NCBI GenBank assembly: GCA_026395915.1
Contig: JAPLXU010000013.1
Location: 16,428 to 80,427 of the forward strand
DNA: 64,000 bases
From: Candidatus Nomurabacteria bacterium
Lineage (GTDB): Bacteria; Patescibacteriota; Minisyncoccia; Phycocordibacterales; UBA9973
Direction: 5' to 3'
Shown here: positions 34,362 through 49,275 of the stretch, in pieces
Numbering within the stretch: the stretch's first letter is position 1
How the letters are laid out: each line of letters begins with the position of its first letter
The notes under the pieces: generated by a model
What the model was told of the DNA's origin: nothing
The model's database searches: none
Seen by the model: only the letters and a program-made list of their open reading frames with translations
Made by a program: the position numbers and the translations under genes

Positions 34362-37300
34362 TTGTTTTGCTTTGGATTTTTGCTTTTGGCTTTAGTGGCT
34401 GTTGCCTTTGTAAAATTTTCTCCGGTATCTGCTACAGTATCATCTACCTCTGCAACCGTTCTCGCCAAATCCGATCTCCTCCAATTCACTTCGCATGGTC
34501 AAGTTATCGGTTTCCAAAACACAGGCTTTATCCTCGCATCTCCCACACACATGCTCAAAATTGATTTTTTAAATTCCAACAACATCACGCCAGTATCAGA
34601 TAGCGCGCCAACCACACCTTCCACTTCTACCACCTTACCTTCCACAACAGAAAAAGCCGCTCCGCTTACAAAAGTTACTTACTCCAATGTTTGGAATGGC
34701 ATAGATATTGTTTATGAAGCCAACAAAGATTCTCTGATGAAAAGCACCTATTATGTTGATATCACAAAGCAAGGAGTTTCTCCAGACAGTATCAAGCTTC
34801 ACTACAACCGTCCTCTTTCTTTGGATAAAAATAAAAGTCTCACAATCAAATATGACATTGGCACAATCACCGAATCAGCTCCTCTCGCTTGGCAAATAAT
34901 AAATAACAAAAAAGTTTTTGTACCAATTTCTTACAAACTTATAAACGAAAATGATATCGGATTTACTCTTGGAGCTTACACTCCAAATATTCCAATAGTC
35001 ATCGATCCCACTTATACATGGAATCCTTTTTTGGGAGGAAGCGGGAGTGATACTGGCCACGGGATTGCGGTAGACGTTAATGGAAACGTTTATGTCAGTG
35101 GTTATAGTAGTTCCACATGGGGTTCACCTGTGCGAGCATATACTGATGGTGGTGATGCCTTTGTAGCAAAACTCAGTAGCACAGGAATTCTTATCTGGAA
35201 CACCTTTTTGGGTGGAAATGGAGAAGATTATGGTTTTGGTGTCGCCGTAGATACAAACGGAAATGTTTATGCTACTGGATACAGTAATGATACATGGGGG
35301 GTAACACCAGTGCGATCATATACTTCAAGCACTGATGCTTTTGTCGTTAAACTTGATAGTGCGGGCGTATTAACTTGGAATACTTTCTTGGGAGGTAGTA
35401 GAGAGGATCAAGGAAATGGAATCGCCGTAGACATCAGCGGAAATGTTTATGTTACCGGAACTACTAGTGGCGCCACTTGGGGTTCACCTGTAAAAGCATA
35501 CCTGTCAACTCAAGATGCTTTTGCCGCTAAAATCAGTAGTGCTGGCGCTCTCACATGGAATACTTTTGTGGGTAGGAGTAGTACTGTTGGTCAAGGAATA
35601 GCAGTTGATACTAGTGGTAATGTTTACATTGCTGGAAGTGTTGGTGGTGGCTCCGGTTTTGCCTCTATTGTTAGAGCATATACCTCATCTAATGATGGCT
35701 TTGTTGTAAAATTCGCAAATAATGGCGCTCTCACGTGGACCTCTTTTTTGGGTGGAAATGGAGGTGATGAAAGTTACGCAATTGCAGTTGACACGATTGG
35801 AAATATTTACGTAACTGGACTCAGCGACACCACTTGGGGTTCACCAGTGCGAGCGTATTATGGTTCTAGTTACGATATTTGGGCAGCTAAGCTAGATACT
35901 AATGGCGCTCTTACGTGGAATACTTTTTTAGGCGATAGTGGTAATGACTATGGCTACGGGATCGCTATCGACATTAATGGAAACGTATATGTCGTTGGAT
36001 ACACTTCAGCCACTTGGGGTTCACCAGTGAGAACATACTCTTCCGGTCTTGATGTCTTCGCCGCTAAACTTGATGGTGTTGGTACTCTTGTATGGAATAC
36101 TTTTTTGGGAGGAAATGAGACCGATGTTGGTTACGGTATCGCTATCGACATTAATGGAAATGTTTATATTGGCGGGGCTGGTCCCACTACCTGGGAATCT
36201 CCAACAATTGCTCATGATTTAGGAGCCAACACAGATGCCTTTGTAGCCAAGTTAACCTCCCTTGGCGCTCTCACCACCATCATCGTTCCCACAATCACTC
36301 CAACAGCAGGAAGTAACGGTGCAATATCTCCAAGTGTTCCAACTGATGTAACAAGCGGTGGCAGCCAATCCTTCACCCTCACCCCATCAGCTCACTACCA
36401 CGTAGCCGATGTATTAGTCGACAGTGTCTCTCAAGGGGCAATAACTTCATACACTTTTTCAAATGTCACAGGAGATCACGCAATCTCTGCCACCTTTGCC
36501 ATAGACACCCAAACAGTTACCTTCAACAAAAACGGTGGTGACACAGAAGCAAGTCCAACAACCAGAACAACTAATTACAATACAACAGTAACACTACCAA
36601 CAGCGCCAACAAAGACAGGTTATACTTTCTCTGGCTGGAACACAGCAGCCAATGGTTCAGGCACTGCATTCATAGGAAGCACTGCAGTTGTTGCAGATGT
36701 TACTGTATATGCTCAATGGACTATTAATAGTTATACTTTGACCTACACCGCCGGCTCTCATGGTTCAATCACAGGCACTTCTCCTCAAACAATCAATTAC
36801 GGTTCAAATGGTTCAGAAGTTACTGCTGTCCCAAATGCTCATTATCACTTTGTAAACTGGTCTGACTCTTCCATTACTAACCCAAGAACAGACACAAACA
36901 TAACTGACAATCTCTCTTTCTCAGCTAACTTTGCCATAACTACCCACACCCTCACTCCATCCTCAGATTCAAACGGTTCAATCAGTCCTTCCACATCAAC
37001 CACAATAAATGACGGTGACTCAGAAACCTTCACCATCATCCCAAACAACGGTTACCGCATCTCTGACATTCAAATAGACGGTATATCTCAAGGAACAATT
37101 GCTTCCTACACTTTCTCAAACGTTACAGATAATCACACTATCTCTGTCACCTTTGCTCGTCGTCCATCCGGTCGTCCCATAATTTCAATAACTCCACCGA
37201 CTCCAGTAGTTGCAACCCCTTCTCCTTCGACAAGCTCAGGACAAGCAACCACTCCGCCTCCTTACACAAATACAACAACAGTTTACAACTTCGGTACAAA

Positions 37301-37514
37301 AACTTTAAAGAATGGTAGCACTGGTGATGCAGTCAAAGAACTTCAAAGATTCTTGAATGCCAAGCTGAATCTTAATCTAACCATTGATGGCAAACTAGGT
37401 CCAAAGACTATTCTTGTCATCAAAGCATGGCAGAAAGCTCATGGTTTAACTCCTGATGGACTTATTGGAGCAAAGACGAAGGAGAGGATGAAAATCGAAG
37501 CGGAAAAATTCTAA
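34362..37514 (+). CDS. Large cell-surface protein: signal peptide, SBBP/beta-propeller repeats, Listeria-Bacteroides (InlB B-type) repeats, C-terminal peptidoglycan-binding domain
   Basis: ORF as listed starts at TTG (no in-frame ATG). More than 12 repeats of ..TW(G/N)SPVRAY.(S)..DAFV(A/V)KL..(G/A)(A/V)LTWNTFLGG. 'TGYTFSGWNTAANGSG...VYAQWT' repeat. C-terminus NGSTGDAVKELQRFLN...DGKLGPKT (PG_binding_1-like). Confidence 0.7.
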   Translation: MFCFGFLLLALVAVAFVKFSPVSATVSSTSATVLAKSDLLQFTSHGQVIGFQNTGFILASPTHMLKIDFLNSNNITPVSDSAPTTPSTSTTLPSTTEKAAPLTKVTYSNVWNGIDIVYEANKDSLMKSTYYVDITKQGVSPDSIKLHYNRPLSLDKNKSLTIKYDIGTITESAPLAWQIINNKKVFVPISYKLINENDIGFTLGAYTPNIPIVIDPTYTWNPFLGGSGSDTGHGIAVDVNGNVYVSGYSSSTWGSPVRAYTDGGDAFVAKLSSTGILIWNTFLGGNGEDYGFGVAVDTNGNVYATGYSNDTWGVTPVRSYTSSTDAFVVKLDSAGVLTWNTFLGGSREDQGNGIAVDISGNVYVTGTTSGATWGSPVKAYLSTQDAFAAKISSAGALTWNTFVGRSSTVGQGIAVDTSGNVYIAGSVGGGSGFASIVRAYTSSNDGFVVKFANNGALTWTSFLGGNGGDESYAIAVDTIGNIYVTGLSDTTWGSPVRAYYGSSYDIWAAKLDTNGALTWNTFLGDSGNDYGYGIAIDINGNVYVVGYTSATWGSPVRTYSSGLDVFAAKLDGVGTLVWNTFLGGNETDVGYGIAIDINGNVYIGGAGPTTWESPTIAHDLGANTDAFVAKLTSLGALTTIIVPTITPTAGSNGAISPSVPTDVTSGGSQSFTLTPSAHYHVADVLVDSVSQGAITSYTFSNVTGDHAISATFAIDTQTVTFNKNGGDTEASPTTRTTNYNTTVTLPTAPTKTGYTFSGWNTAANGSGTAFIGSTAVVADVTVYAQWTINSYTLTYTAGSHGSITGTSPQTINYGSNGSEVTAVPNAHYHFVNWSDSSITNPRTDTNITDNLSFSANFAITTHTLTPSSDSNGSISPSTSTTINDGDSETFTIIPNNGYRISDIQIDGISQGTIASYTFSNVTDNHTISVTFARRPSGRPIISITPPTPVVATPSPSTSSGQATTPPPYTNTTTVYNFGTKTLKNGSTGDAVKELQRFLNAKLNLNLTIDGKLGPKTILVIKAWQKAHGLTPDGLIGAKTKERMKIEAEKF

Positions 37515-37931: not shown

Positions 37932-40900
37932 ATGCATACAATAGCCAAGCGTCCGAAGAAGTATTTTTCTAGATACAAGAAACCTCTCGTCGAATTTCCG
38001 AATTTGATCGAGGCACAATTAAAAAGTTTTAAATGGTTGGTGGAGCAGGGAATCGGAGAAGTGTTCAAGGAATTTTCTCCCATTAGCGATTACTCCACAA
38101 AAAAGTTTCAGCTAGAATTCACTTCTTTCTCTCTTTCTGAATGCAAGTATGATGAAAATAATGCGAAGGTAAATAAACTTTCGTATCAAGGTCTCTTGAA
38201 AGCTCGAGTAAAATTGACGAACAAAGTTTTGGGCACTGTGAAAGAGCAGGAAATTTTCATGTCGGAACTTCCTCTCATGACGAATCACGGAACTTTTATC
38301 ATCAACGGTGTAGAACGCGTTATCGTTCCGCAACTCGCGCGAAGTTTTGGAGTTTTCTTTACAGAATCCGAAAGCAAAGGCAACAGATATTTTGGCGCCA
38401 AGATTATTCCTGCGCGAGGTGTTTGGATTGAGATAGAGTCGGAAGCTGATGGAGCCATTTATATAAGAATAGACAAGAAAAGAAAATTCCCTGCGACAGC
38501 GCTTCTGCGAGCTATGGGTTATGAGAGTAATGAGGATATTTTGAAGGCTTTTTCCACGAATTCTATTTTCGAAGAAACGATAAAAACTTGTTTGGCGAAA
38601 GACGGAGTTAAAAGTCTGAATGATTCGTATGTAGAAATCTACAAACGCTTGAGAGATGGAGATATGGCTACAGCGGAAAACGCAAAAGAATTTATCAATT
38701 CTTTGTTTACACCTGAGCGTTACGATCTTTCTCCTGTCGGCCGTTTCAGATTCAACCAACGTTTCGGGAAGCCTATGGATGAAGTGGCGCTCGCTCGTCG
38801 AACTATTTCCAAAGAAGATTTAGCGACGGTGATTATGAATATCATCACTTTGAATAATACTCCCGACGCAAAGAGCGATGATATAGATCACTTGGGTCAG
38901 AGACGTGTAAGATTTGTCGGCGAAATACTTCAACAGAAAGTTCGCACTGGTATGATGCAGATCAAGAGAAACATTCAAGACAGAATGTCTATTATCGACG
39001 TTGATACTGCGATGCCTATCGCCATTATCAACCAACGTCCGCTTCAAGCTCGAATAAAAGAATTTTTCACCACGAACCAGCTTTCCCAATTTATGGCGCA
39101 AGAAAATGTGCTTTACGAAATAGAACATTTGCGCACTCTTTCGGCTTTGGGACCCGGAGGTCTCACTCGCGAGCGCGCAGGACTCGAAGTCCGCGATGTG
39201 CATCCTTCTCACTATGGAAGAGTTTGTCCTATTCACACTCCTGAAGGTCCGAACATTGGGCTCATTTTGCACCTTTCCACTTACGCTAAAATAAATGATT
39301 TTGGAATTATTGAAACTCCATATGTAAAAGTTTCAAAAGGAAAAATCACCGGCGAAGTAGTTTACTTAAACGCGCTTGAGGAAGAAAAGTACAATATCGC
39401 GCATGCCGGAATTCCTTATGATGAAAGTGGAAGAATCACAGAAGAAAAAGTAGAAGCCAGAATCAAGACAGAGCCGGGTCAAGTTTCCCGCGATGAAGTT
39501 GATTTCATTGACGTCTCTCCCAACCAAGCTTTTTCGATAGCGACTTCAATGATTCCGTTTTTGGAACACAACAATGCAAACAGAGCATTGATGGGAAGCA
39601 ACATGCAGAAGCAGGCAGTGCCTTGCGTGTTGCCCGAAGCTCCTCTTGTCGCCACAGGCATAGAAGAATTAGCGGCTCGCGATGGAGGACGTTTGGTTAT
39701 CGCTGAAGAAGATGGTCTAATCTCTTATTTAGATGCGAAAAAAATAACTATCAAAGGGAAAAAAGAGCAGACTTATCCTCTTGTTAATTTTATGAGGAAT
39801 AACAACTTCGCTGTATTTCATCAGCGTCCGTTGGTGAATGTCGGTGATAAGGTGAAGAAGGGCGATGTGTTGGCGGATACCAGTAGCACAGTAGGTGGGC
39901 AAATTTCTCTAGGGCAAAATATTTTTGTTGCCTTTCTGTCTTGGTCTGGATCAACTTATGAAGATGCAATAGTTGTTTCTGAACGTTTAGTGAAAAAGAG
40001 TAAATTTACGTCGGTCTATGTCGAAGAATTCACTTGCGTTGTTCGTGATACGAAACTCGGACCTGAAATCACTACTCGAGATATACCAAACGTCGGGGAA
40101 CTCAAACTGAAAGATCTAGACGAAGATGGCATTGTTCGCATTGGCGCGGAAGTTAGAGAAAATGATATTTTGGTTGGTAAGATCACTCCAAAAGGTGAGA
40201 CAGAACTTACTCCAGAAGAGCGACTCTTGCGTTCGATTTTTGCCGAGAAGGCGCGAGATGTCAAAGACACATCACTCCGAGTGGAACACGGAAAACGCGG
40301 ACGCATTATTGGTGTGAAGATTTTTTCTCGCGATTTGGGACATACGCTTGAAGCGGGAATCATCAAAAAAATTGTGATTGAAGTGGCTCAGATTAGAAAT
40401 ATTTCGGTTGGAGACAAACTTTCCGGACGACATGGAAACAAAGGAGTTATCTCAAGAATTTTGCCTGAAGAAGATATGCCTTACATGGCAGATGGCACGC
40501 CGGTTGATATTATTTTGTCGCCACTTGGTGTTCCTTCTCGTATGAACTTGGGACAAATATTGGAAATGCATCTTGGTATGGCGGCAAACAGTCTCGGTTA
40601 TCAAGCTATCGTTCCGCCGTTTTTGGGAGCTAAACACGAGGAAATCAGTCAAGAATTGGAAAAAGCCGGATTGCCAGCAAATGGAAAAGTGAAACTTTTT
40701 GACGGACGCACCGGAGAAGCTTTTGAACAAGATGTCGCTGTCGGTTATATGTACATGTTGAAACTTCATCACATGGTGGAAGACAAGATTCACATGCGTT
40801 CTATTGGACCTTATTCTTTAATCACTCAACAGCCTCTCGGCGGAAAAGCTCAAGGCGGTGGACAGAGATTCGGGGAAATGGAAGTCTGGGCGCTCGAAGG

Positions 40901-41102
40901 TTACGGCGCGGCTTATACTTTGCGTGAAATGCTTACTATTAAGTCTGACGATATTCTAGGTCGTTCGCAGACTTTTGATTCTATTATCAAAAATGAAATG
41001 ATTCGACCGCCAAATTCACCAGCTTCGTTCAATGTGCTCCTAAATTACTTGCGAGGGTTGGCGCTTGATGTGAATTTAAAGAAAGGCGTAGACGAGAAAT
41101 AA
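37932..41102 (+). CDS. rpoB: DNA-directed RNA polymerase subunit beta
   Basis: Full-length conserved RpoB (…GPGGLTRERAGLEVRDVHPSHYGRVCPIHTPEGPNIGL…). Confidence 0.95.
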   Translation: MHTIAKRPKKYFSRYKKPLVEFPNLIEAQLKSFKWLVEQGIGEVFKEFSPISDYSTKKFQLEFTSFSLSECKYDENNAKVNKLSYQGLLKARVKLTNKVLGTVKEQEIFMSELPLMTNHGTFIINGVERVIVPQLARSFGVFFTESESKGNRYFGAKIIPARGVWIEIESEADGAIYIRIDKKRKFPATALLRAMGYESNEDILKAFSTNSIFEETIKTCLAKDGVKSLNDSYVEIYKRLRDGDMATAENAKEFINSLFTPERYDLSPVGRFRFNQRFGKPMDEVALARRTISKEDLATVIMNIITLNNTPDAKSDDIDHLGQRRVRFVGEILQQKVRTGMMQIKRNIQDRMSIIDVDTAMPIAIINQRPLQARIKEFFTTNQLSQFMAQENVLYEIEHLRTLSALGPGGLTRERAGLEVRDVHPSHYGRVCPIHTPEGPNIGLILHLSTYAKINDFGIIETPYVKVSKGKITGEVVYLNALEEEKYNIAHAGIPYDESGRITEEKVEARIKTEPGQVSRDEVDFIDVSPNQAFSIATSMIPFLEHNNANRALMGSNMQKQAVPCVLPEAPLVATGIEELAARDGGRLVIAEEDGLISYLDAKKITIKGKKEQTYPLVNFMRNNNFAVFHQRPLVNVGDKVKKGDVLADTSSTVGGQISLGQNIFVAFLSWSGSTYEDAIVVSERLVKKSKFTSVYVEEFTCVVRDTKLGPEITTRDIPNVGELKLKDLDEDGIVRIGAEVRENDILVGKITPKGETELTPEERLLRSIFAEKARDVKDTSLRVEHGKRGRIIGVKIFSRDLGHTLEAGIIKKIVIEVAQIRNISVGDKLSGRHGNKGVISRILPEEDMPYMADGTPVDIILSPLGVPSRMNLGQILEMHLGMAANSLGYQAIVPPFLGAKHEEISQELEKAGLPANGKVKLFDGRTGEAFEQDVAVGYMYMLKLHHMVEDKIHMRSIGPYSLITQQPLGGKAQGGGQRFGEMEVWALEGYGAAYTLREMLTIKSDDILGRSQTFDSIIKNEMIRPPNSPASFNVLLNYLRGLALDVNLKKGVDEK

Positions 41103-41105
41103 AAT

Positions 41106-41936
41106 ATGGACAAAAATCAATTGGCTATTTTTGAAAACTTTAAAATAAGAAGGCATTATAACGAGAAAGAAGAAGTCTGGTATTTTTCAGTGGTTGATAT
41201 TATTGGAGCGCTTTTAGATCAGAATGATTTTCAAAAATCTAGAAGTTATTGGAAAAAGCTGGCACAACGACTCAGAGAGGAGGGAAGTCAAGTGGTGACA
41301 AATTGTCACCGGTTGAAAATGGTGGCAGCTGATGGAAAAATGAGAGAAACTGATGTAGCTAGTGTAGAAACTATTTTACGCATTATTCAAACAGTGCCAA
41401 GTAAAAGAGCTGAACCATTTAAGCTCTGGCTGGCGAAAGTTGGTTATGAAAGATTGCAGGAAATGGCTGATCCGGAAAAATCAATAAACAGAGCAAGAGA
41501 AAATTGGCAAAAACATGGACGTAGCAATCAATGGATACAGCAAAGAATGATGGGGCAGGAAATTAGAAACAAGCTCACGGATTATTGGAAAAATAATGAA
41601 GTAAAAGAAAAAAAAGAATATGCCATTTTGACGAATATTATTCACGAAGAATGGAGCGGTGTTTCTGTCCAAAGTCATAAAAAAATGAAGGGGCTAAAAA
41701 CTCAAAACTTGCGCGATCATATGTCCGACGCGGAATTGGTTTTTACCGCTTTGGCTGAATTATCCACCAGACAAATTGCTGAAACGATGGAAACAAAAGG
41801 ATTGGAAGAAAATAAAATTCCAGCAATAAAAGGTGGAAGCATTGCCAAAAATGCGCGAAAATCATTGGAGGCAAAAACTGGAAAGCCAGTGGTAACCGGC
41901 AAAAATTTTTTATTAGCAAGTGAAGTTAAAAAGTAA
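41106..41936 (+). CDS. Bro-N domain / DinD-like (DNA-damage-inducible protein D family) protein inserted between rpoB and rpoC
   Basis: N-terminus IFENFKIRRHYNEKEEVWYFSVVDIIGAL = Bro-N fold motif. Remainder (…RAEPFKLWLAKVGYERL…) resembles DinD-like proteins. Confidence 0.55.
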   Translation: MDKNQLAIFENFKIRRHYNEKEEVWYFSVVDIIGALLDQNDFQKSRSYWKKLAQRLREEGSQVVTNCHRLKMVAADGKMRETDVASVETILRIIQTVPSKRAEPFKLWLAKVGYERLQEMADPEKSINRARENWQKHGRSNQWIQQRMMGQEIRNKLTDYWKNNEVKEKKEYAILTNIIHEEWSGVSVQSHKKMKGLKTQNLRDHMSDAELVFTALAELSTRQIAETMETKGLEENKIPAIKGGSIAKNARKSLEAKTGKPVVTGKNFLLASEVKK

Positions 41937-41940
41937 ACAT

Positions 41941-44900
41941 ATGAAAACTTTAAACACAACTGAATTTGATTCCATCGGATTGCGTCTCGCTTCGCCAGAG
42001 CAGATACAGGAATGGTCTTTTGGAGAAGTGACCAAACCGGAAACCATAAATTATCGCACGGGAAGGAGCGAACGTGGAGGTCTCTTTGACGAAAAAATAT
42101 TCGGGCCGGAAAAAGACTACGAATGTTACTGTGGAAAGTATCGCCGAATTCGTTACAAGGATATTATTTGCGAAAAATGCGGAGTGGAAGTTACGCGTTC
42201 GATTGTTCGTCGTGAACGCATGGGACATATCGAGCTTTCTACACCGGTATCGCATATTTGGTTCTTGCGTGGAGTGCCTTCTCGCATGAGCATCTTGCTC
42301 AATATCTCCGTGATTGATCTTGAAAAGGTTATTTATTTTGCCGGCTATATAATCACCAAAGTTCATGAGGAAGAAAAACAGTCAATAATCACAGGCTTGG
42401 ACAAAGAATATAAAGCCAAGCTAAAAAATGCGGCTGATGATGACATCAAAGAGAAGCTGAAAAATTTGCTTTCCGTCACCAAAAAAGAAATTGGAGAAAT
42501 CTACGAAGGAAAAGTTTTGAATGAAATTTCTTTCCATCATTATTCTCTGAAATACGGAACTTGTTTTGAAGCGAATATCGGCGCCGAAGCTATTTACTCA
42601 ATTTTCAAAAATCTTGACTTGAATAAATTAAAAGCTCACACCGAAAAAATGTTGGAGAAGGCGAGCGCTGCGGAAAAAGACAAATTACAGAAGAGGCTTT
42701 CTCTCATTCGCGCTATGACTTATGCTGGGATCAGACCGGAATGGATGTTCCTTACGATTATTCCTGTCATTCCTCCAGTTTTGCGTCCGATGGTGGCTCT
42801 CGATGGAGGCAGACATGCTACTTCTGATTTGAACGATCTTTACCGCAGAGTTATAAACAGAAATAATCGTTTGAAAAAATTAAAAGAGATCAACGCGCCG
42901 GACGTAATCTTGCGAAATGAAAAAAGAATCATCCAAGAAGCTGTCGACGCTTTGATTGATAACTCAATCGCGAAACAAAATGATTCTGCGGCGATGAGTC
43001 AATCTCAGAAACGCCCACTAAAATCTCTTTCGGACAATTTGAAATCTAAACAAGGTCTTTTTCGCCAAAATTTGCTCGGAAAAAGAGTAGACTATTCTGG
43101 ACGTTCGGTTATTGTTGTTGGTCCCGAACTCAAACTCAATCAATGCGGTTTGCCGAAGCATATGGCGCTCGAACTTTTCCGACCATTCGTGATTTCAAAA
43201 ATCTTGCAGGCGGAATTGGCGTTTAACATTCGCGGGGCAAATAAGCTCATCGAAGAACGCACCCCCGAAGTTTGGGCGATGCTCGAAGAAGTTATTGCGG
43301 GAAAGTATGTGCTTTTAAACCGCGCGCCGACCTTGCACAGATTGGGTATTCAAGCTTTTAATCCAATTCTGATTGAAGGAAATGCTATTCAAGTGCATCC
43401 TCTTGTTTGTCAGGCTTTTAACGCTGATTTCGATGGAGACCAAATGGCTGTCTATGTTCCTCTTCTCGAAGAAGCGCAGTCTGAAGCGAAAGAATTAATG
43501 GCTGCGAATAAAAATCTGCTCAAACCTCAAAACGGAGAGCCGATCGTAAACCCTCGCATGGACATGGTGCTCGGAAGCTATTGGATGACAAAATCAATGG
43601 AAGGAGAAAAAGGGGAGGGAAAATATTTTTCGCGACCTAATGTGGCTATTAGCGCCTATGAATATGGGATCACTTCTTTGCGCGCGAAAGTAAAAGTCTT
43701 AGCGGATACAGCTAAAGTAAAATACAAGAAATTTGATGGGGGAATTTTTGAAACTTCTGCCGGCAAACTTCTCTTTAATAGTATTTTGCCAGACGATTTT
43801 CCTTACGTGGGCGATGAAATGACTCAGGACAGACTGATTGCGCTTCTCGATGAACTCATAGTGCATTACGGCGTGGACGCTACTCCTAAAATCTTGGACA
43901 AGATAAAGGCGTTTGGTTTCAAATATTCGACAGTTTCTGGCACCACTTGGGGACTCGATAATGTTTCTGTGTCTCTCGACAAGCCAAAAATTATTGCGCA
44001 AGGTAAAAAATTGGAAGAAGAAATTATCTCTCAATGGAGGGAAGGTCTTTTGTCTGAAGAAGAGAAGTATCAAAAAATTATTGAAATTTGGACTCACACA
44101 AAAAAGGATTTGGAAAAAATTCTACCAAAAACATTGGATAAAAAAAGTTCCACTTACGATCTTTTCACTTCGAAAGCTAGAGGCACGATGTCTAGCTTGA
44201 TGCAAATGACAGGCATGATCGGACTTATCCAGAACAACCAAGGCAAGACTTTGGAGTTCCCGATTATTCCTTGTTATCAAGAAGGACTTTCTCCGATCGA
44301 GTATTTCGTCATCACACACGGAGCTCGTAAAGGTGCTTCTGATACCGCGCTCAATACCGCAAAAGCCGGATATTTGACGCGAAGACTGGTTGACGTTGCG
44401 CAGGATGTTGTCATTACGGAAATAGATTGTGGTACAAAAGAAGGAAGAATGGTCAGAAGCGAAGATATTTCCGGAATAAAAATTCCACTTTCAAAAAATA
44501 TTCGTGGACGAGTTTTGGCAGCCGATCTAAAAGACAAGGACGGCAAAGTGGTTTACAAAAAAGGATTTTTGGTCACCAAAGAAGAAGCTTACAATATCGA
44601 AGGCGCTGGTTTCACAGAAGTTTTTGTCCGTTCTCCACTAACCTGTGAGACTATTCACGGCCTCTGCGTCAATTGTTACGGACTTGATTTGGGACGCAAT
44701 CATCTTGTCGAGCTCGGTGAAGCAGTCGGTATCATTGCCGCTCAAGCTATCGGCGAACCGGGTACTCAGCTTACTCTTCGCACGTTCCATGCTGGAGGCG
44801 TGGCGGGAACTGATATCACGACTGGTTTGCCTCGCGTTGAAGAAATATTTGAAAGAAGAGTTCCCAAAAATCCTGCTATTATTTCTGAGACAGACGGAGA

Positions 44901-45579
44901 AGTTGTTGAGATAAAAGTCAAAGATGAGAAAGAGAAAATCATCAAAGTATTGTCCGATATTAAAGCCGACGGGAAAGGGGGTGATAAGAAAAATGAAATG
45001 GAATATATTGTGGCTTTTCATCGAACGCCGACAGTTAAAGTTGGCGACCACGTGAAAGCGGGCGACCTTTTGACTGACGGATCGGCTGATATTGCTGAGA
45101 TCTTCAAATTCGGTGGCAAGGAATTGGTTGAAAGATATATCATTCGAGAAATAAATAAAGTTTACGAATTGCAGAGCGCTTCGATTAGCAGAAAGCACAC
45201 GGAAATAATCATCCGCCAGATGTTCTCACGTCGAAAAATAAAAGATGCGGGTATCACCAATTTTTCGATTGGTGATATTGTTGAGAATACTGCATTTATA
45301 GAGGAAAATCAAAGAGTTGCTGGGTTAGATAAAAAAATAACTGAAGATGAAATTGGAGGACAGGCAAAAGCAGAAACAGTTGTACTCGGCATTACCGAAG
45401 TCTCGCTTCGTACAAAGAGCTGGCTCTCTGCCGCTTCGTTCCAAAACACAAATCGTGTTCTTATTGAAAACGCAATAAAAGGGGGAGTAGACGACCTACG
45501 AGGATTGAAAGAAAATGTCATAATCGGGCGACTCATTCCGGCCGGAACTGGGTTTAAAAATAAGATAAAGGCTGAATAA
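41941..45579 (+). CDS. rpoC: DNA-directed RNA polymerase subunit beta'
   Basis: Zn-binding CxxC..CxxC, NADFDGD catalytic motif, trigger loop, C-terminal domains. Start placed at ATG 41941 (the listed ORF 41920 start overlaps the upstream gene). Confidence 0.95.
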
Positions 45580-45614: not shown

Positions 45615-46127
45615 GTGGTGAAGGTTGAAAAGGGGAAATGGATATTTATGCAAAAAGATTTTGATAAATGGAACACAGAGAAAAAAGCTGTAGATGCAAA
45701 AGTTGTAAATACAGAACTTTTCTTTCATGCTCGGGAAATTTGGTGGTGTAGCGCAGGATTAAATGTTGGAGTAGAAGCAGATGGAAAACACGAAAACTTT
45801 GAAAGGCCGATGCTAATTGTAAAAAAGTTTAATGCGGATATGGTATGGGCGCTTCCACTTACTACGCAAGGAAGAAAAAATAAGTATTATTATAAGTTGA
45901 ATCACGAAGAAGTAAAATCGTGGGTTGTTCTGTCACAAATAAAAACAATAAGCACAAAAAGATTTTTGCGAAAGGTAGGATCTATTTCTGAGTCAGATTT
46001 CAAGGAAGTAATTTTGAGGTTGCAAAAGTTGCTAAAAATCGAAAACCCCCTTACGGGGGCTTTCTCGGAGGCCGAAGCCACTAATACAAGAAGTATAAAC
46101 GGCAATCAAAACAAAGTCAAGCGATAG
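45615..46127 (+). CDS. PemK/MazF-family protein, paralog 2 (orphan). The C-terminal 30 aa are probably read-through into a GC-hairpin repeat
   Basis: REIWWCSAGLNVGVEADGKHENFERPMLIVKKFNADMVWALPLTT...WVVLSQIKTISTKRFL is paralogous to 11092-11484. Homology ends near ..ILRLQKLL, after which the ORF runs through repeat copy 46041-46071. Confidence 0.55.
   Translation: MVKVEKGKWIFMQKDFDKWNTEKKAVDAKVVNTELFFHAREIWWCSAGLNVGVEADGKHENFERPMLIVKKFNADMVWALPLTTQGRKNKYYYKLNHEEVKSWVVLSQIKTISTKRFLRKVGSISESDFKEVILRLQKLLKIENPLTGAFSEAEATNTRSINGNQNKVKR
46041..46071. repeat. GC-rich hairpin repeat copy (ccccc-ttac-ggggg + tttctcggagg)
   Basis: cgaaaacccccttacgggggctttctcggag, inside the 3' end of the MazF-like ORF. 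Confidence 0.5.
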
Positions 46128-46128
46128 A

Positions 46129-46176
46129 CGAAACCCCCTTTCGGGGGTTTCTCGGGGTCTCCGACAAGGGAGACAT
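46129..46176. repeat. GC-rich hairpin repeat copy plus adjacent hairpin
   Basis: cgaaaccccctttcgggggtttctcggggtc followed by gtctcc-gacaag-ggagac. Confidence 0.5.
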
Positions 46177-46269: not shown

Positions 46270-47889
46270 ATGAACAAAAAAATTATTTGGAGGGTTATCG
46301 TAGCGATTGTCATAATCGCAGGGGGCTTCGCGTATAATTATCTATCAAAACCAAAACCAGTGTGTTGGCCTTATTGTCCTGGAATGACGGATCAAGATCG
46401 TGAAGCAATCAAAAAATCTGCGCTTGAAGCCGAAACTGCGAATTGGAAAACGTACACAAATACTAAATATGGATTTGAAGTAAAGTATCCAGTAGATTGG
46501 AGAACTGAAGAGACAAAAACACGTTATGGTTCTACTATTTTCTCTCTAGCTCTAGTATCTCCAGAAACTGATGATTTTATCAAAAAAGTTCCTGGCACTG
46601 ATGCAAGTACATTTGACGTTGATTTTATGATATATCCATTAAATTACAGATCTAATGGTGTTCGTAGTCAGGTTGTGTTTAATGGAATTAATGCAGAAAA
46701 AGTTGTATCTGAATCTGAGCTGGGTACTCATAGTATTATCTATTTGGATGGAAAAAATTATACGTATGGGATATATAATATTAGTCCAAGAAACATTGAG
46801 GAGAATGATCAAATTCTCTCTACTTTCAAATTCATTGAGCCAACGACACAAATTGATACTTCGAATTGGAAAACGTATACAAATGAAAAATATGGTTTTT
46901 CATTATCATATCCAACCGACTTTGAAAATGTGAATGATTTAACTGCCACACAACAAAATTCTCTTTTGACGTATATGGCAGTATGTCTTGTTGGTAATAA
47001 TAATTCACGGATACGGCCAGATCAAAGTGGTTTCTGTTATGTAGGAAAACAAACGTCAGATGGGTTTACAATGGCTTCTTTGAACATAACTCCTAGTGTA
47101 TCGAAAAGTGCGCAAGAATGTAATAATACATCTGCTCAAATTAAGCAAACGACACTTAATGGTATTATCTTTGATCAATCCCATCTCGACGACGCTGGTT
47201 TAGGTCACTATGTATCAACAGATTCTTATAGGACATATCACCAGGGAATATGTTATACGATAGATCTAAACATTGAGTCGAATATAGGTAAATTAGAAAA
47301 GGGACTTAGCGTTGATTTTGCTTCTTTGATACATTCTAAATTAGAATCGATTCTTTCCACTTTCAAATTCATTCCAACCGCAAATATTTCCTCAAATGAT
47401 TCTTTGTTAAAAGCTGGAACAGATGTTTTGACTGCATTAAGAGATGATAATTATCAAAAACTAGAGGAACTTACGAGCTCAAGTGGTTTATCTTGGAATG
47501 AATATCCGCAACTTGATTTTACGAAAAATGATATTTCTAAAGATAGCATATCGGATATATCAACAGACAATAAAACTTATATGTTCGGTTACACAGATGG
47601 AAAAGGTGATCCTATCGTTTTAACAAAAAAAGACTATATAAAAGAATATCTTTATAATTACGACTACTTGTATGCTGAAAAGGTTGCTGTAAATAAAACA
47701 TTAGGTAGTGGAAACAGTGTTAATTCTATTATTAAGGATTCTGGAAATAGAACTGTCGTAGCTTACTATTTTTCTGGGTTTGATGCAAAATATGGTGGTA
47801 TGGATTGGACAACTTTGTATTTAGTTTTTGACAAGGAAAATGGTGTGTATAAGCTTTGTGGAATTGCAAAAGACAATTGGACAATTTAG
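46270..47889 (+). CDS. Membrane-anchored secreted repeat protein (WKTYTNxKYGF..KYP modules), paralog A
   Basis: N-terminal TM (IIWRVIVAIVIIAGGF). Two modules starting (T/D)(A/T)(S/N)NWKTYTN(T/E)KYGF(E/S)(V/L)(K/S)YP and ending ILSTFKFI(E/P)PT. 539 aa. Confidence 0.65.
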   Translation: MNKKIIWRVIVAIVIIAGGFAYNYLSKPKPVCWPYCPGMTDQDREAIKKSALEAETANWKTYTNTKYGFEVKYPVDWRTEETKTRYGSTIFSLALVSPETDDFIKKVPGTDASTFDVDFMIYPLNYRSNGVRSQVVFNGINAEKVVSESELGTHSIIYLDGKNYTYGIYNISPRNIEENDQILSTFKFIEPTTQIDTSNWKTYTNEKYGFSLSYPTDFENVNDLTATQQNSLLTYMAVCLVGNNNSRIRPDQSGFCYVGKQTSDGFTMASLNITPSVSKSAQECNNTSAQIKQTTLNGIIFDQSHLDDAGLGHYVSTDSYRTYHQGICYTIDLNIESNIGKLEKGLSVDFASLIHSKLESILSTFKFIPTANISSNDSLLKAGTDVLTALRDDNYQKLEELTSSSGLSWNEYPQLDFTKNDISKDSISDISTDNKTYMFGYTDGKGDPIVLTKKDYIKEYLYNYDYLYAEKVAVNKTLGSGNSVNSIIKDSGNRTVVAYYFSGFDAKYGGMDWTTLYLVFDKENGVYKLCGIAKDNWTI

Positions 47890-47907
47890 TGTGAATTAAA
47901 AAAACAT

Positions 47908-49275
47908 ATGAAGATTAATATAAAATTTATAGCATCGGTGATATTAATTGCGCTTTTTGCTGCCGGATTTTATTTTGTTGTATCACAGAAAAAGGTGCCA
48001 ATTACTTCTGCAACAGATGATTGGAAAACATACACAAATGAAAAGTACGGATTCGAGTTTAAATATCCAGCTTCAAAATATACGGTATTAGGATATGAAC
48101 TTAGTAGTCGGTATTATAAAGATGAATATGAAGTTGGTGTATATCCCATTGAAGAATATGGAGAATATTCAGGTACTGGACTCGGTATCTCTATAAGGAA
48201 TTTAGGAAAAACTCCAGTCAAATTAGAAGAGCTTATCAATTATCGTCCTCTTGGTATAGACAATACTCACAATACTAAAAAAATATTGGTGGGAGGCCAG
48301 GAGGCTGTTCGAGTTGATCATGATCTTATTCAGATTTCTGGATATGACGGTCAGCAATCAATTTTTCAGTCTTATGTTTATTTTATTAAAAATAACTTGC
48401 TTTATACTATAAATATAGAAAAAGATTCAGTCGACTTAGAAAAAAATATTTCTTTAGAAGAAATTCTTTCTTCTTTTGAATTTACTGATCCAACGACTGA
48501 CGTTTCAAATTGGAAAACATATAGCGGATATGGAATTTCTTTTAAATACCCTAGCTCTATGGGTGAGCCGAAGATCACGCAGTTAAGTACCATGACGTCA
48601 TTTAGTTTTAGTAATAGTGTAGAATTTGATATAGGTGTTTATTATGATCAAAATTTTGGTAGAAATAAAACATTTGACGAAGTTGTAAATAAGGCAAAAA
48701 ATAATCCGGAAGTTGTCTATCGTGGAGAAAAAGATATTACTGTGGGTAATAAAACTGGTGTAGAGCTTTTTCTGTTAGATAAAGTCTCTGGCGGTGAATC
48801 GGTAGAAATTTATGTTCCAAACATAGATAAGCATGGAAATATGTTATCTGGTTCTGAATATAACAGGGCGGTGGCTAATGTTGGTGGTGCTGATCTTCTG
48901 TCAATCATGAAAACTTTAGAATTTACTGAACCAGCAACACAAATTGACACTTCAAATTGGAAAACATATAAAAATGAAGACTATGGGATAGAGTTTAAAT
49001 ATCTTAGTACTTATAGCATATTAGATAGAAGTTATATAACTCCAGGAGGAGGTGTTTTTCCATCAGTAGCGATTGTTCCTCCAACTGATCAAGAAAATGA
49101 TCTAATAATTATTGGTTCTAGAACTTTAGTAAGTACGGCACCTGCAATTTCTTGTAATTCTACATTTACAAGGTGTAAAGAATTTGGGTCAAATATTGTA
49201 TATACTAAAGCTCAAAATAGTAACATTCAGGTTCTGTTTGATAACTTTATTGATACCGTAAAATTCACCAAATAA
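47908..49275 (+). CDS. Membrane-anchored secreted repeat protein, paralog B
   Basis: N-terminal TM. Three modules: DDWKTYTNEKYGFEFKYP, SNWKTYSGYGISFKYP, SNWKTYKNEDYGIEFKYL. Ends LSSFEFTDPT / MKTLEFTEPAT. 455 aa. Confidence 0.65.
   Translation: MKINIKFIASVILIALFAAGFYFVVSQKKVPITSATDDWKTYTNEKYGFEFKYPASKYTVLGYELSSRYYKDEYEVGVYPIEEYGEYSGTGLGISIRNLGKTPVKLEELINYRPLGIDNTHNTKKILVGGQEAVRVDHDLIQISGYDGQQSIFQSYVYFIKNNLLYTINIEKDSVDLEKNISLEEILSSFEFTDPTTDVSNWKTYSGYGISFKYPSSMGEPKITQLSTMTSFSFSNSVEFDIGVYYDQNFGRNKTFDEVVNKAKNNPEVVYRGEKDITVGNKTGVELFLLDKVSGGESVEIYVPNIDKHGNMLSGSEYNRAVANVGGADLLSIMKTLEFTEPATQIDTSNWKTYKNEDYGIEFKYLSTYSILDRSYITPGGGVFPSVAIVPPTDQENDLIIIGSRTLVSTAPAISCNSTFTRCKEFGSNIVYTKAQNSNIQVLFDNFIDTVKFTK

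Follow-up and report, generated by a model that had tools for sequence, protein, structure and literature searches.

A 64-kb stretch of DNA from a Candidatus Nomurabacteria metagenome-assembled genome (MAG), taken from the 86,483-bp contig JAPLXU010000013.1 and called the window below, contains two adjacent genes whose products, here P1 and P2, were deposited as hypothetical proteins (Table 1). A previous sequence-only reading of this DNA had described them as adjacent paralogs of 539 and 455 amino acids (aa), each with an N-terminal membrane anchor followed by copies of a module of roughly 150 aa that it did not recognize. Both open reading frames (ORFs) lie where that reading placed them and have those lengths, and the architecture it proposed was right in outline. 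The module can now be named: it belongs to Pfam family PF18933 (PsbP_2, “PsbP-like protein”) and has the PsbP/Mog1 fold.

P1 and P2 are built from PsbP_2 modules

The tetrapeptide WKTY, which begins the module opening motif WKTYxNxxYGFxFKYP, occurs five times across the pair (P1 aa 59 and 200; P2 aa 39, 202, and 351), as the sequence-only reading had reported, and in no other ORF of the window. The motif does recur but is less than near-invariant, module 2 of P2 having a two-residue deletion in it. The repeats are likewise real but less regular in size than had been proposed, with lengths of about 144, 179, 166, 153, and 109 aa, the last being shortened. The closing motif, ILSTFKF, is present four times in the form I[LM][SK][ST][FL][KE]F (P1 aa 182 and 361; P2 aa 186 and 333), and the fifth module closes P2 with FIDTVKFTK at the protein end. 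The TTQIDTS linker that had been described as ending the modules is found at only two junctions, with a diverged version at one more, and not at every module.

Aligned with one another, the modules match end to end at 24 to 28% identity (BLASTP E values of 1e-7 to 1e-12), and a six-frame profile search of the window found the module in the P1 and P2 ORFs only. At the DNA level, repeats are restricted to stretches of 24 to 74 nucleotides (nt) around the motif junctions, with 65 to 82% identity. Because DNA similarity is limited in this way, the modules appear to be old, diverged duplications and not a product of assembly. At one junction (46822-46895 versus 48913-48986, containing TFKFIEPTTQIDTSNWKTY), P1 and P2 are 82% identical in DNA, and the module interiors are about 25% identical in protein; this high identity could reflect strong constraint, or gene conversion or module shuffling. 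The idea that the repeats are artifacts, arising from chance recurrence of the motif or, as the sequence-only reading had considered, from duplication during assembly, is refuted to the point of having practically no probability left. Shuffling P1 and P2 20,000 times gave at least one WKTY in 104 shuffles and more than two in none, and the divergence of the copies is not that of assembly-made duplicates. In addition, identical proteins are deposited from the 86-kb contig, and the multi-module layout is shared by relatives, 110 of 116 retrieved proteins having at least two modules.

Against PF18933, P1 scores 46.3 bits and P2 41.0 bits (in three stretches), above the gathering threshold of 27. 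The family was also matched by all 10 relatives that were rescanned; many relatives have precomputed PF18933 matches, and NCBI gives some of them the name “PsbP-related protein.” Profile and structure searches with single modules, which the sequence-only reading had proposed, were run: they gave the PsbP/Mog1 fold, and a profile made from an alignment of 59 PsbP_2 family modules (A2) recognizes all five modules of P1 and P2, but lone modules fall short of the Pfam threshold. The sequence-only reading had allowed that the module might map to a well-known domain of defined function; the domain is indeed catalogued, but no defined function is attached to it in these bacteria. The resemblance to PF18933 extends to the opening and closing motifs and the N-terminal anchor. 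The two differ in that the Pfam model is a single module of 184 positions, whereas P1 has two modules and P2 three, and P1 adds an NTF2-like domain. Judged by sequence, P1 and P2 are ordinary members of a catalogued family that is very common in bacteria of the candidate phyla radiation (CPR). Their multiple modules and the NTF2-like fusion depart from the one-module model, but both recur in other CPR genomes and are not unique to this locus.

A true PsbP of photosystem II was considered and rejected. The scores are below threshold both for PF01789 (17.0 bits versus 23.5) and for NCBIfam NF040946, PSII_PsbP (14.4 versus 60), and CPR bacteria are non-photosynthetic; P1 and P2 are therefore not PsbP proper. 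PsbP, CyanoP, and PNSL1, the extrinsic lumenal proteins of photosystem II and NDH in PF01789, are moreover single soluble or lipidated domains, in contrast to the anchored tandem modules described here.

The predicted structure of one module is a PsbP/Mog1-type alpha-beta-alpha sandwich, in which WKTYT and FEVKY form the opening beta-hairpin and ..ENDQILSTFKF forms the final helix and a short strand. Its structural neighbors, with the figures obtained, are cyanobacterial PsbP (9.3), Tsi3 (9.0), TplEi (8.5), plant and algal PsbP and PNSL1 (8.3 to 7.4), MTC28 (7.9), LpqN (7.7), Apa (7.0), Mog1 (6.9), PA0094 (6.7), and DcrB (5.6). In an independent Foldseek search, BT_1490, PsbP, CyanoP, and Tsi3 were each returned with a probability of 1.00. 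The module profile found no solved relative among PDB sequences. Across the 59 aligned modules, mean column entropy was 1.26 bits at positions 4 to 24, 3.22 bits at positions 25 to 120, and 1.98 bits at positions 121 to 136. On this alignment, the PsbP_2 module appears to be a conserved frame, consisting of the N-terminal beta-hairpin and the C-terminal helix and strand, between which about 100 residues are almost free to vary.

Relatives of P1 and P2 are numerous. In the 116 retrieved by database search, a sample biased by the three-module query, two modules are present in 80 proteins, three in 29, and five in one, behind an N-terminal anchor; those with a named source come from Patescibacteria, except for two labeled “bacterium” and one labeled Pacearchaeota. 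A degenerate DNA scan for W-K-T-Y-x-N-x-x-Y-G-F in one genome per GTDB species found at least 120 loci. Among those listed, 118 of 120 were confirmed by the module profile, and most are from many different classes of Patescibacteria, among them Saccharibacteria (such as Nanosynbacter and Southlakia), Berkelbacteria, and Microgenomates, the others being from Nostocales, Chloroflexota, a Woesearchaeota MAG, and further lineages. Most of the listed ORFs have one module and many have two or three. Adjacent paralog genes are common among them (for example, L007, L080, L084, L096, and L124), and the P1-P2 pair thus appears to be a typical local expansion.

Table 1. Features of the P1-P2 locus and its surroundings, in window coordinates; A2 is the profile made from 59 PsbP_2 family modules
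Feature	Position	Strand	Remarks
P1, 539 aa	46270..47889	+	NTZ87_02075; label P0031; anchor, Cys-containing linker, two PsbP_2 modules, NTF2-like C-terminal domain
P1 N-terminal hydrophobic helix, ~aa 5-24	46282..46341	+	signal anchor or signal peptide; preceded by K3, K4, R8
P1 linker, aa 25-53	46342..46428	+	contains CWPYCPGMTDQDREAIKKSALEAE; same linker in P0137 and P0154
P1 module 1, aa 54-197	46429..46860	+	PsbP/Mog1 fold
P1 module 2, aa 198-375	46861..47394	+	longer PsbP_2 module, contains four Cys; full-length A2 match, E 2.8e-21; BLASTP versus P1 module 1 E 2.7e-11
P1 C-terminal NTF2-like domain, aa 376-539	47395..47886	+	large family, no Pfam or NCBIfam model
P2, 455 aa	47908..49275	+	NTZ87_02080; label P0001; anchor and three PsbP_2 modules
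P2 N-terminal hydrophobic helix, ~aa 6-27	47923..47988	+	Kyte-Doolittle scan
P2 module 1, aa 34-199	48007..48504	+	aligns with PF18933 profile positions 41-184; A2 E 9.8e-31
P2 module 2, aa 200-348	48505..48951	+	A2 E 5.7e-18, full length
P2 module 3, aa 349-455, shortened (~107 aa)	48952..49272	+	A2 match to N-terminal third only (positions 2-48, E 5.9e-12) plus a weak C-terminal stretch
1,050-aa protein	34362-37514	+	DUF7948, five SBBP beta-propeller repeats, Flg_new/InlB B-repeat domains, C-terminal PG_binding_1
Bro-N ORF, 276 aa	41106-41936	+	26.1 bits versus threshold 25.6; between rpoB (37932-41102) and rpoC (41920-45579)
PemK/MazF-like toxin ORF	45615-46127	+	PF02452, 56 bits; directly after rpoC
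GC-rich hairpin element, two copies	46040-46073, 46129-46162		GAAA(A)CCCCCTT(A/T)CGGGGG(C/T)TTCTCGG

The C-terminal NTF2-like domain of P1

The sequence-only reading overlooked a separate domain, not a module, at the C-terminus of P1 (aa 376 to 539). In the predicted structure this is a cone-shaped alpha+beta fold, with helices followed by a curved antiparallel sheet, of the kind seen in the NTF2-like/SnoaL/ketosteroid-isomerase superfamily. The P1 domain gave no Pfam match up to an E value of 10, and its diverse relatives gave no Pfam-A or NCBIfam match over the domain; a profile of the family run against PDB sequences returned two matches (E values of 0.045 and 0.77) and no convincing relative. 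Besides having no Pfam or NCBIfam family, it differs from the rest of the superfamily in its length (164 aa, versus mostly 110 to 160 in the matched chains), in its position at the C-terminus of exported or anchored proteins, and in its signature, WGYxDGxGxPI ... GMDW ... WTI-COOH. The near-invariant residues, in P1 numbering, are G440, D443, G444, G446, D465, G481, N482, G510, D512, W513, and W537.

Thirty-three aligned homologs of the domain are 37 to 64% identical in a MAFFT alignment (52 to 66% by BLASTP, with the most distant at 39%), and nearly all are anchor-plus-domain proteins of about 200 aa from Paceibacterota or Taylorbacteria. The family extends well beyond these, since a profile search of 1.84 billion cluster representatives (50% identity) found 1,939 members, 577 of them at an E value of 1e-30 or lower. 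Among the best 150 of the 1,939, the match nearly always extends to the extreme C-terminus of the protein; the domain, represented by the relatives labeled P0117 to P0295, ends in ..WTI. A scan of metagenomes with a single NTF2-like sequence found no loci, and one with the alignment found six. Many PsbP_2 and NTF2-like relatives (P0124, P0133, P0141, P0148, P0151, P0152, P0165, and P0168) start with MKNxQKGF(I/V/A)xP(V/I)LL.., which resembles a prepilin-type (class III) signal peptide without Glu at +5; the N-termini of P1 and P2 are different.

The association between this domain and PsbP_2 is recurrent. A PsbP_2 module lies directly before the NTF2-like domain in 12 of the 17 closest long representatives and in locus L128, and a PsbP_2 gene lies immediately downstream of the NTF2-like gene in L003 and L131. 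The module tail ..STFKFIP is kept before the domain in L003 and L129. In these two Paceibacterota loci (L003:2-733 and L129:1-687), the NTF2-like gene is preceded in frame by the last PsbP_2 residues only (..LKIRSTFKFIP in L003), and in L003 stop codons are present further upstream, near the contig end. This could represent a decayed fusion, or a frameshift or an effect of the assembly end. In P0137, a P1-type linker (CWPYCPGMTD.DRE.IKKSA) runs straight into the NTF2-like domain, and in P0154 the same type of linker is followed by one PsbP_2 module and then the domain. From these two layouts, P1 looks like a linker/NTF2-like protein with two modules placed between linker and cone. Outside the CPR, the domain is fused instead to Cu_amine_oxidN1, Amidase_3, Germane (with a zf-HC2 anti-sigma-type N-terminus), WG repeats, SLH, SH3_3, and Big_7; examples come from the cultured Paenibacillus donghaensis (WP_087919455.1) and Acetivibrio thermocellus (WP_003513081.1, a zf-HC2-GerMN-NTF2-like protein) and from a Chloroflexota MAG.

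A possible role at the cell envelope

In a Kyte-Doolittle scan (cut-off 1.6), each protein has one strongly hydrophobic stretch, at the N-terminus and with Lys/Arg before the helix, and the P1 windows above the cut-off are confined to this helix. On the basis of hydrophobicity and charge, we can reasonably infer that the helix serves as a signal anchor or signal peptide of the Sec pathway and that the remainder of both proteins is outside the membrane. An extracytoplasmic, membrane-tethered location is suggested not only by this single, positively preceded N-terminal helix but also by the bacterial structural neighbors, which are mostly periplasmic, secreted, or lipoproteins, and by the fused C-terminal domain, which elsewhere accompanies SLH, SH3, amidase_3, and GerM domains. 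No Cys was found in or just past the hydrophobic helix of P1 or P2, the first Cys of P1 being residue 32 in the context KPVC, and so, lacking a lipobox, they were rejected as lipoproteins. A sensor or signaling role was likewise rejected, since only a few residues would face the cytoplasm and an output domain is absent.

PsbP binds photosystem II, Mog1 binds Ran, Tsi3 and TplEi bind effectors, and LpqN is a lipid-binding protein according to its PDB entry description; to our knowledge, the functionally studied proteins of the PsbP/Mog1 fold are all non-enzymatic binding proteins. By analogy with them, the modules of P1 and P2 may also be non-catalytic, and on balance, with moderate confidence, we favor the view that they are binding or spacer units of the cell envelope. 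P1 and P2 would then be single-pass, N-terminally anchored paralogs with their bulk most likely outside the cytoplasmic membrane, and their ectodomains would be strings of PF18933 modules of PsbP/Mog1 fold, with P1 having two and P2 three, of which the final one is shortened. The variable module interiors could serve as binding faces for protein, lipid, or wall ligands. In P1, the modules between the anchor and the NTF2-like cone may space the cone or present it in the wall zone, the site of action of the SLH, SH3, amidase, and GerM domains that accompany it in other phyla. Because the domain is joined to wall-targeting or wall-processing domains in other bacteria, P1 probably positions in this zone an NTF2-like pocket that binds a ligand and is possibly enzymatic.

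Several points weigh against this view. The TM-scores of the module to solved structures are only about 0.5, and lone modules score 11.1 to 22.2 bits against PF18933 (E values of 1.6e-4 to 0.39), below 27. The entropy contrast between frame and interior is partly inflated, since the search for homologs relied on exact word matches within the conserved motifs. Topology was assigned from hydrophobicity and charge alone. NTF2-like cones are often enzymes, which makes “binding” a guess for the P1 domain. The neighborhoods of five relatives (L001, L003, L004, L125, and L126) share only occasional PsbP_2 or NTF2-like neighbors and otherwise hold unrelated housekeeping genes. Finally, we found no paper on the PF18933 family in CPR bacteria, and the literature on PsbP together with CPR, Patescibacteria, Saccharibacteria, or Parcubacteria likewise held nothing relevant.

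The same fold and layout can be read in other ways. The sequence-only reading had regarded P1 and P2 as accessory surface proteins, and displayed, variable modules might indeed bind the host of an episymbiotic CPR bacterium. We regard such a role in attachment or recognition as rather unlikely: a short tether bearing two or three compact modules may fail to clear the wall or S-layer, adhesin-type repeats and sorting signals are absent, and single copies of the motif-bearing domain are found in Nostocales (taken here to be free-living), in MAGs labeled Chloroflexota and Acidobacteriota, and in other lineages. The structural similarity to LpqN and DcrB would fit a role in lipid or lipoprotein handling, with the modules binding lipids scavenged from a host, or lipid-linked precursors, and passing them to membrane machinery. 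This similarity is, however, lower than that to PsbP and BT_1490; besides the missing lipobox, no Pfam match to the LpqN or DUF1795 families was obtained at E values up to 1 with the whole proteins or up to 10 with single modules, and no MmpL-type partners are nearby, so we consider lipid handling unlikely. As a group, the Mog1/PsbP-fold envelope lipoproteins and secreted antigens (LpqN, MTC28, Apa, and DcrB) also differ from P1 and P2 in having a single domain where P1 and P2 have tandem ones.

The resemblance to Tsi3 and TplEi raises the further idea that the modules are immunity-type neutralizers that block muralytic or lipolytic enzymes of hosts or competitors, the tandem paralogs forming an arms-race array. 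This seems to us quite unlikely. Structural similarity is equally high to the non-immunity proteins CyanoP, BT_1490, and LpqN; a multi-module, membrane-anchored architecture is atypical of Tsi3; and neither Tsi3 nor TplEi has detectable sequence similarity to P1 or P2. Nor is an effector gene adjacent, the neighbors being rpoC, the PemK-like ORF, dnaG, and rpoD here and housekeeping genes in relatives, and no cognate effector or type VI secretion system (T6SS) gene was seen in the annotated neighborhood (about 34 to 57 kb of the window). One preprint mentions PsbP/MOG1 domains that accompany T6SS-delivered toxins as markers of such delivery (bioRxiv 10.1101/2025.01.14.632903). A broader proposal, to which we give the same low probability as to immunity, is that PsbP_2 is a CPR-expanded, hypervariable system of surface recognition or neutralization, in which arrays of several modules and of tandem genes diversify specificity toward components of the host envelope or toward lytic enzymes of hosts or competitors, and the NTF2-like domain is a new domain for binding or processing peptidoglycan or other envelope ligands. 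The conserved frame could then show fast-evolving binding faces. The NTF2-like domain also occurs in Firmicutes wall proteins and an anti-sigma-factor-like protein.

Genomic neighborhood and significance

P1 and P2 are preceded by rpoB, the Bro-N ORF, rpoC, and the PemK-like ORF and followed by dnaG and rpoD, with gaps of 18, 5, and 13 nt between P1 and P2, P2 and dnaG, and dnaG and rpoD, respectively, and no plus-strand terminator is predicted between 45400 and 49500. Because the relatives with examined neighborhoods do not repeat the P1-P2-dnaG-rpoD arrangement, this close packing carries no functional weight, and the operon context, being unconserved, offers no functional clue. An exception is a stand-alone NTF2-like homolog that adjoins two M14 peptidase genes, with a gene matching Beta-lactamase2/Peptidase_S11 about 5 kb upstream.

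Other features of the neighborhood were also noted. The Bro-N ORF is unusual in that it separates rpoB and rpoC, which are normally contiguous; its end runs 17 nt past the listed GTG start of rpoC. Between the end of rpoC (45579) and the start of P1 (46270), no ORF of antitoxin size is evident next to the PemK-like ORF. One copy of the GC-rich hairpin element lies within the 3'-terminal part of the PemK-like ORF and the other just past its stop codon; neither is followed by a T-run on the plus strand, so these are not classic terminators. The 1,050-aa protein encoded just upstream of rpoB is another large, cell-wall-associated surface protein.

For the P1-P2 locus itself, the outcome is mainly a clean annotation, in which the “unrecognized module” becomes PF18933 with a PsbP/Mog1 fold. 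The most useful by-product is the NTF2-like family, an extracytoplasmic family with no Pfam or NCBIfam model that is coupled to PsbP_2 in the CPR and to wall domains in Firmicutes and Chloroflexota; it could become a new family model and is testable in the cultivable Paenibacillus and Acetivibrio thermocellus. Few CPR bacteria (Patescibacteria) have been cultured, and no function is assigned to much of their proteome. PsbP-fold proteins with a membrane anchor rank among the commonest envelope proteins in these organisms, and their ligands would inform how such very small cells build or defend their envelopes or make contact with their hosts.

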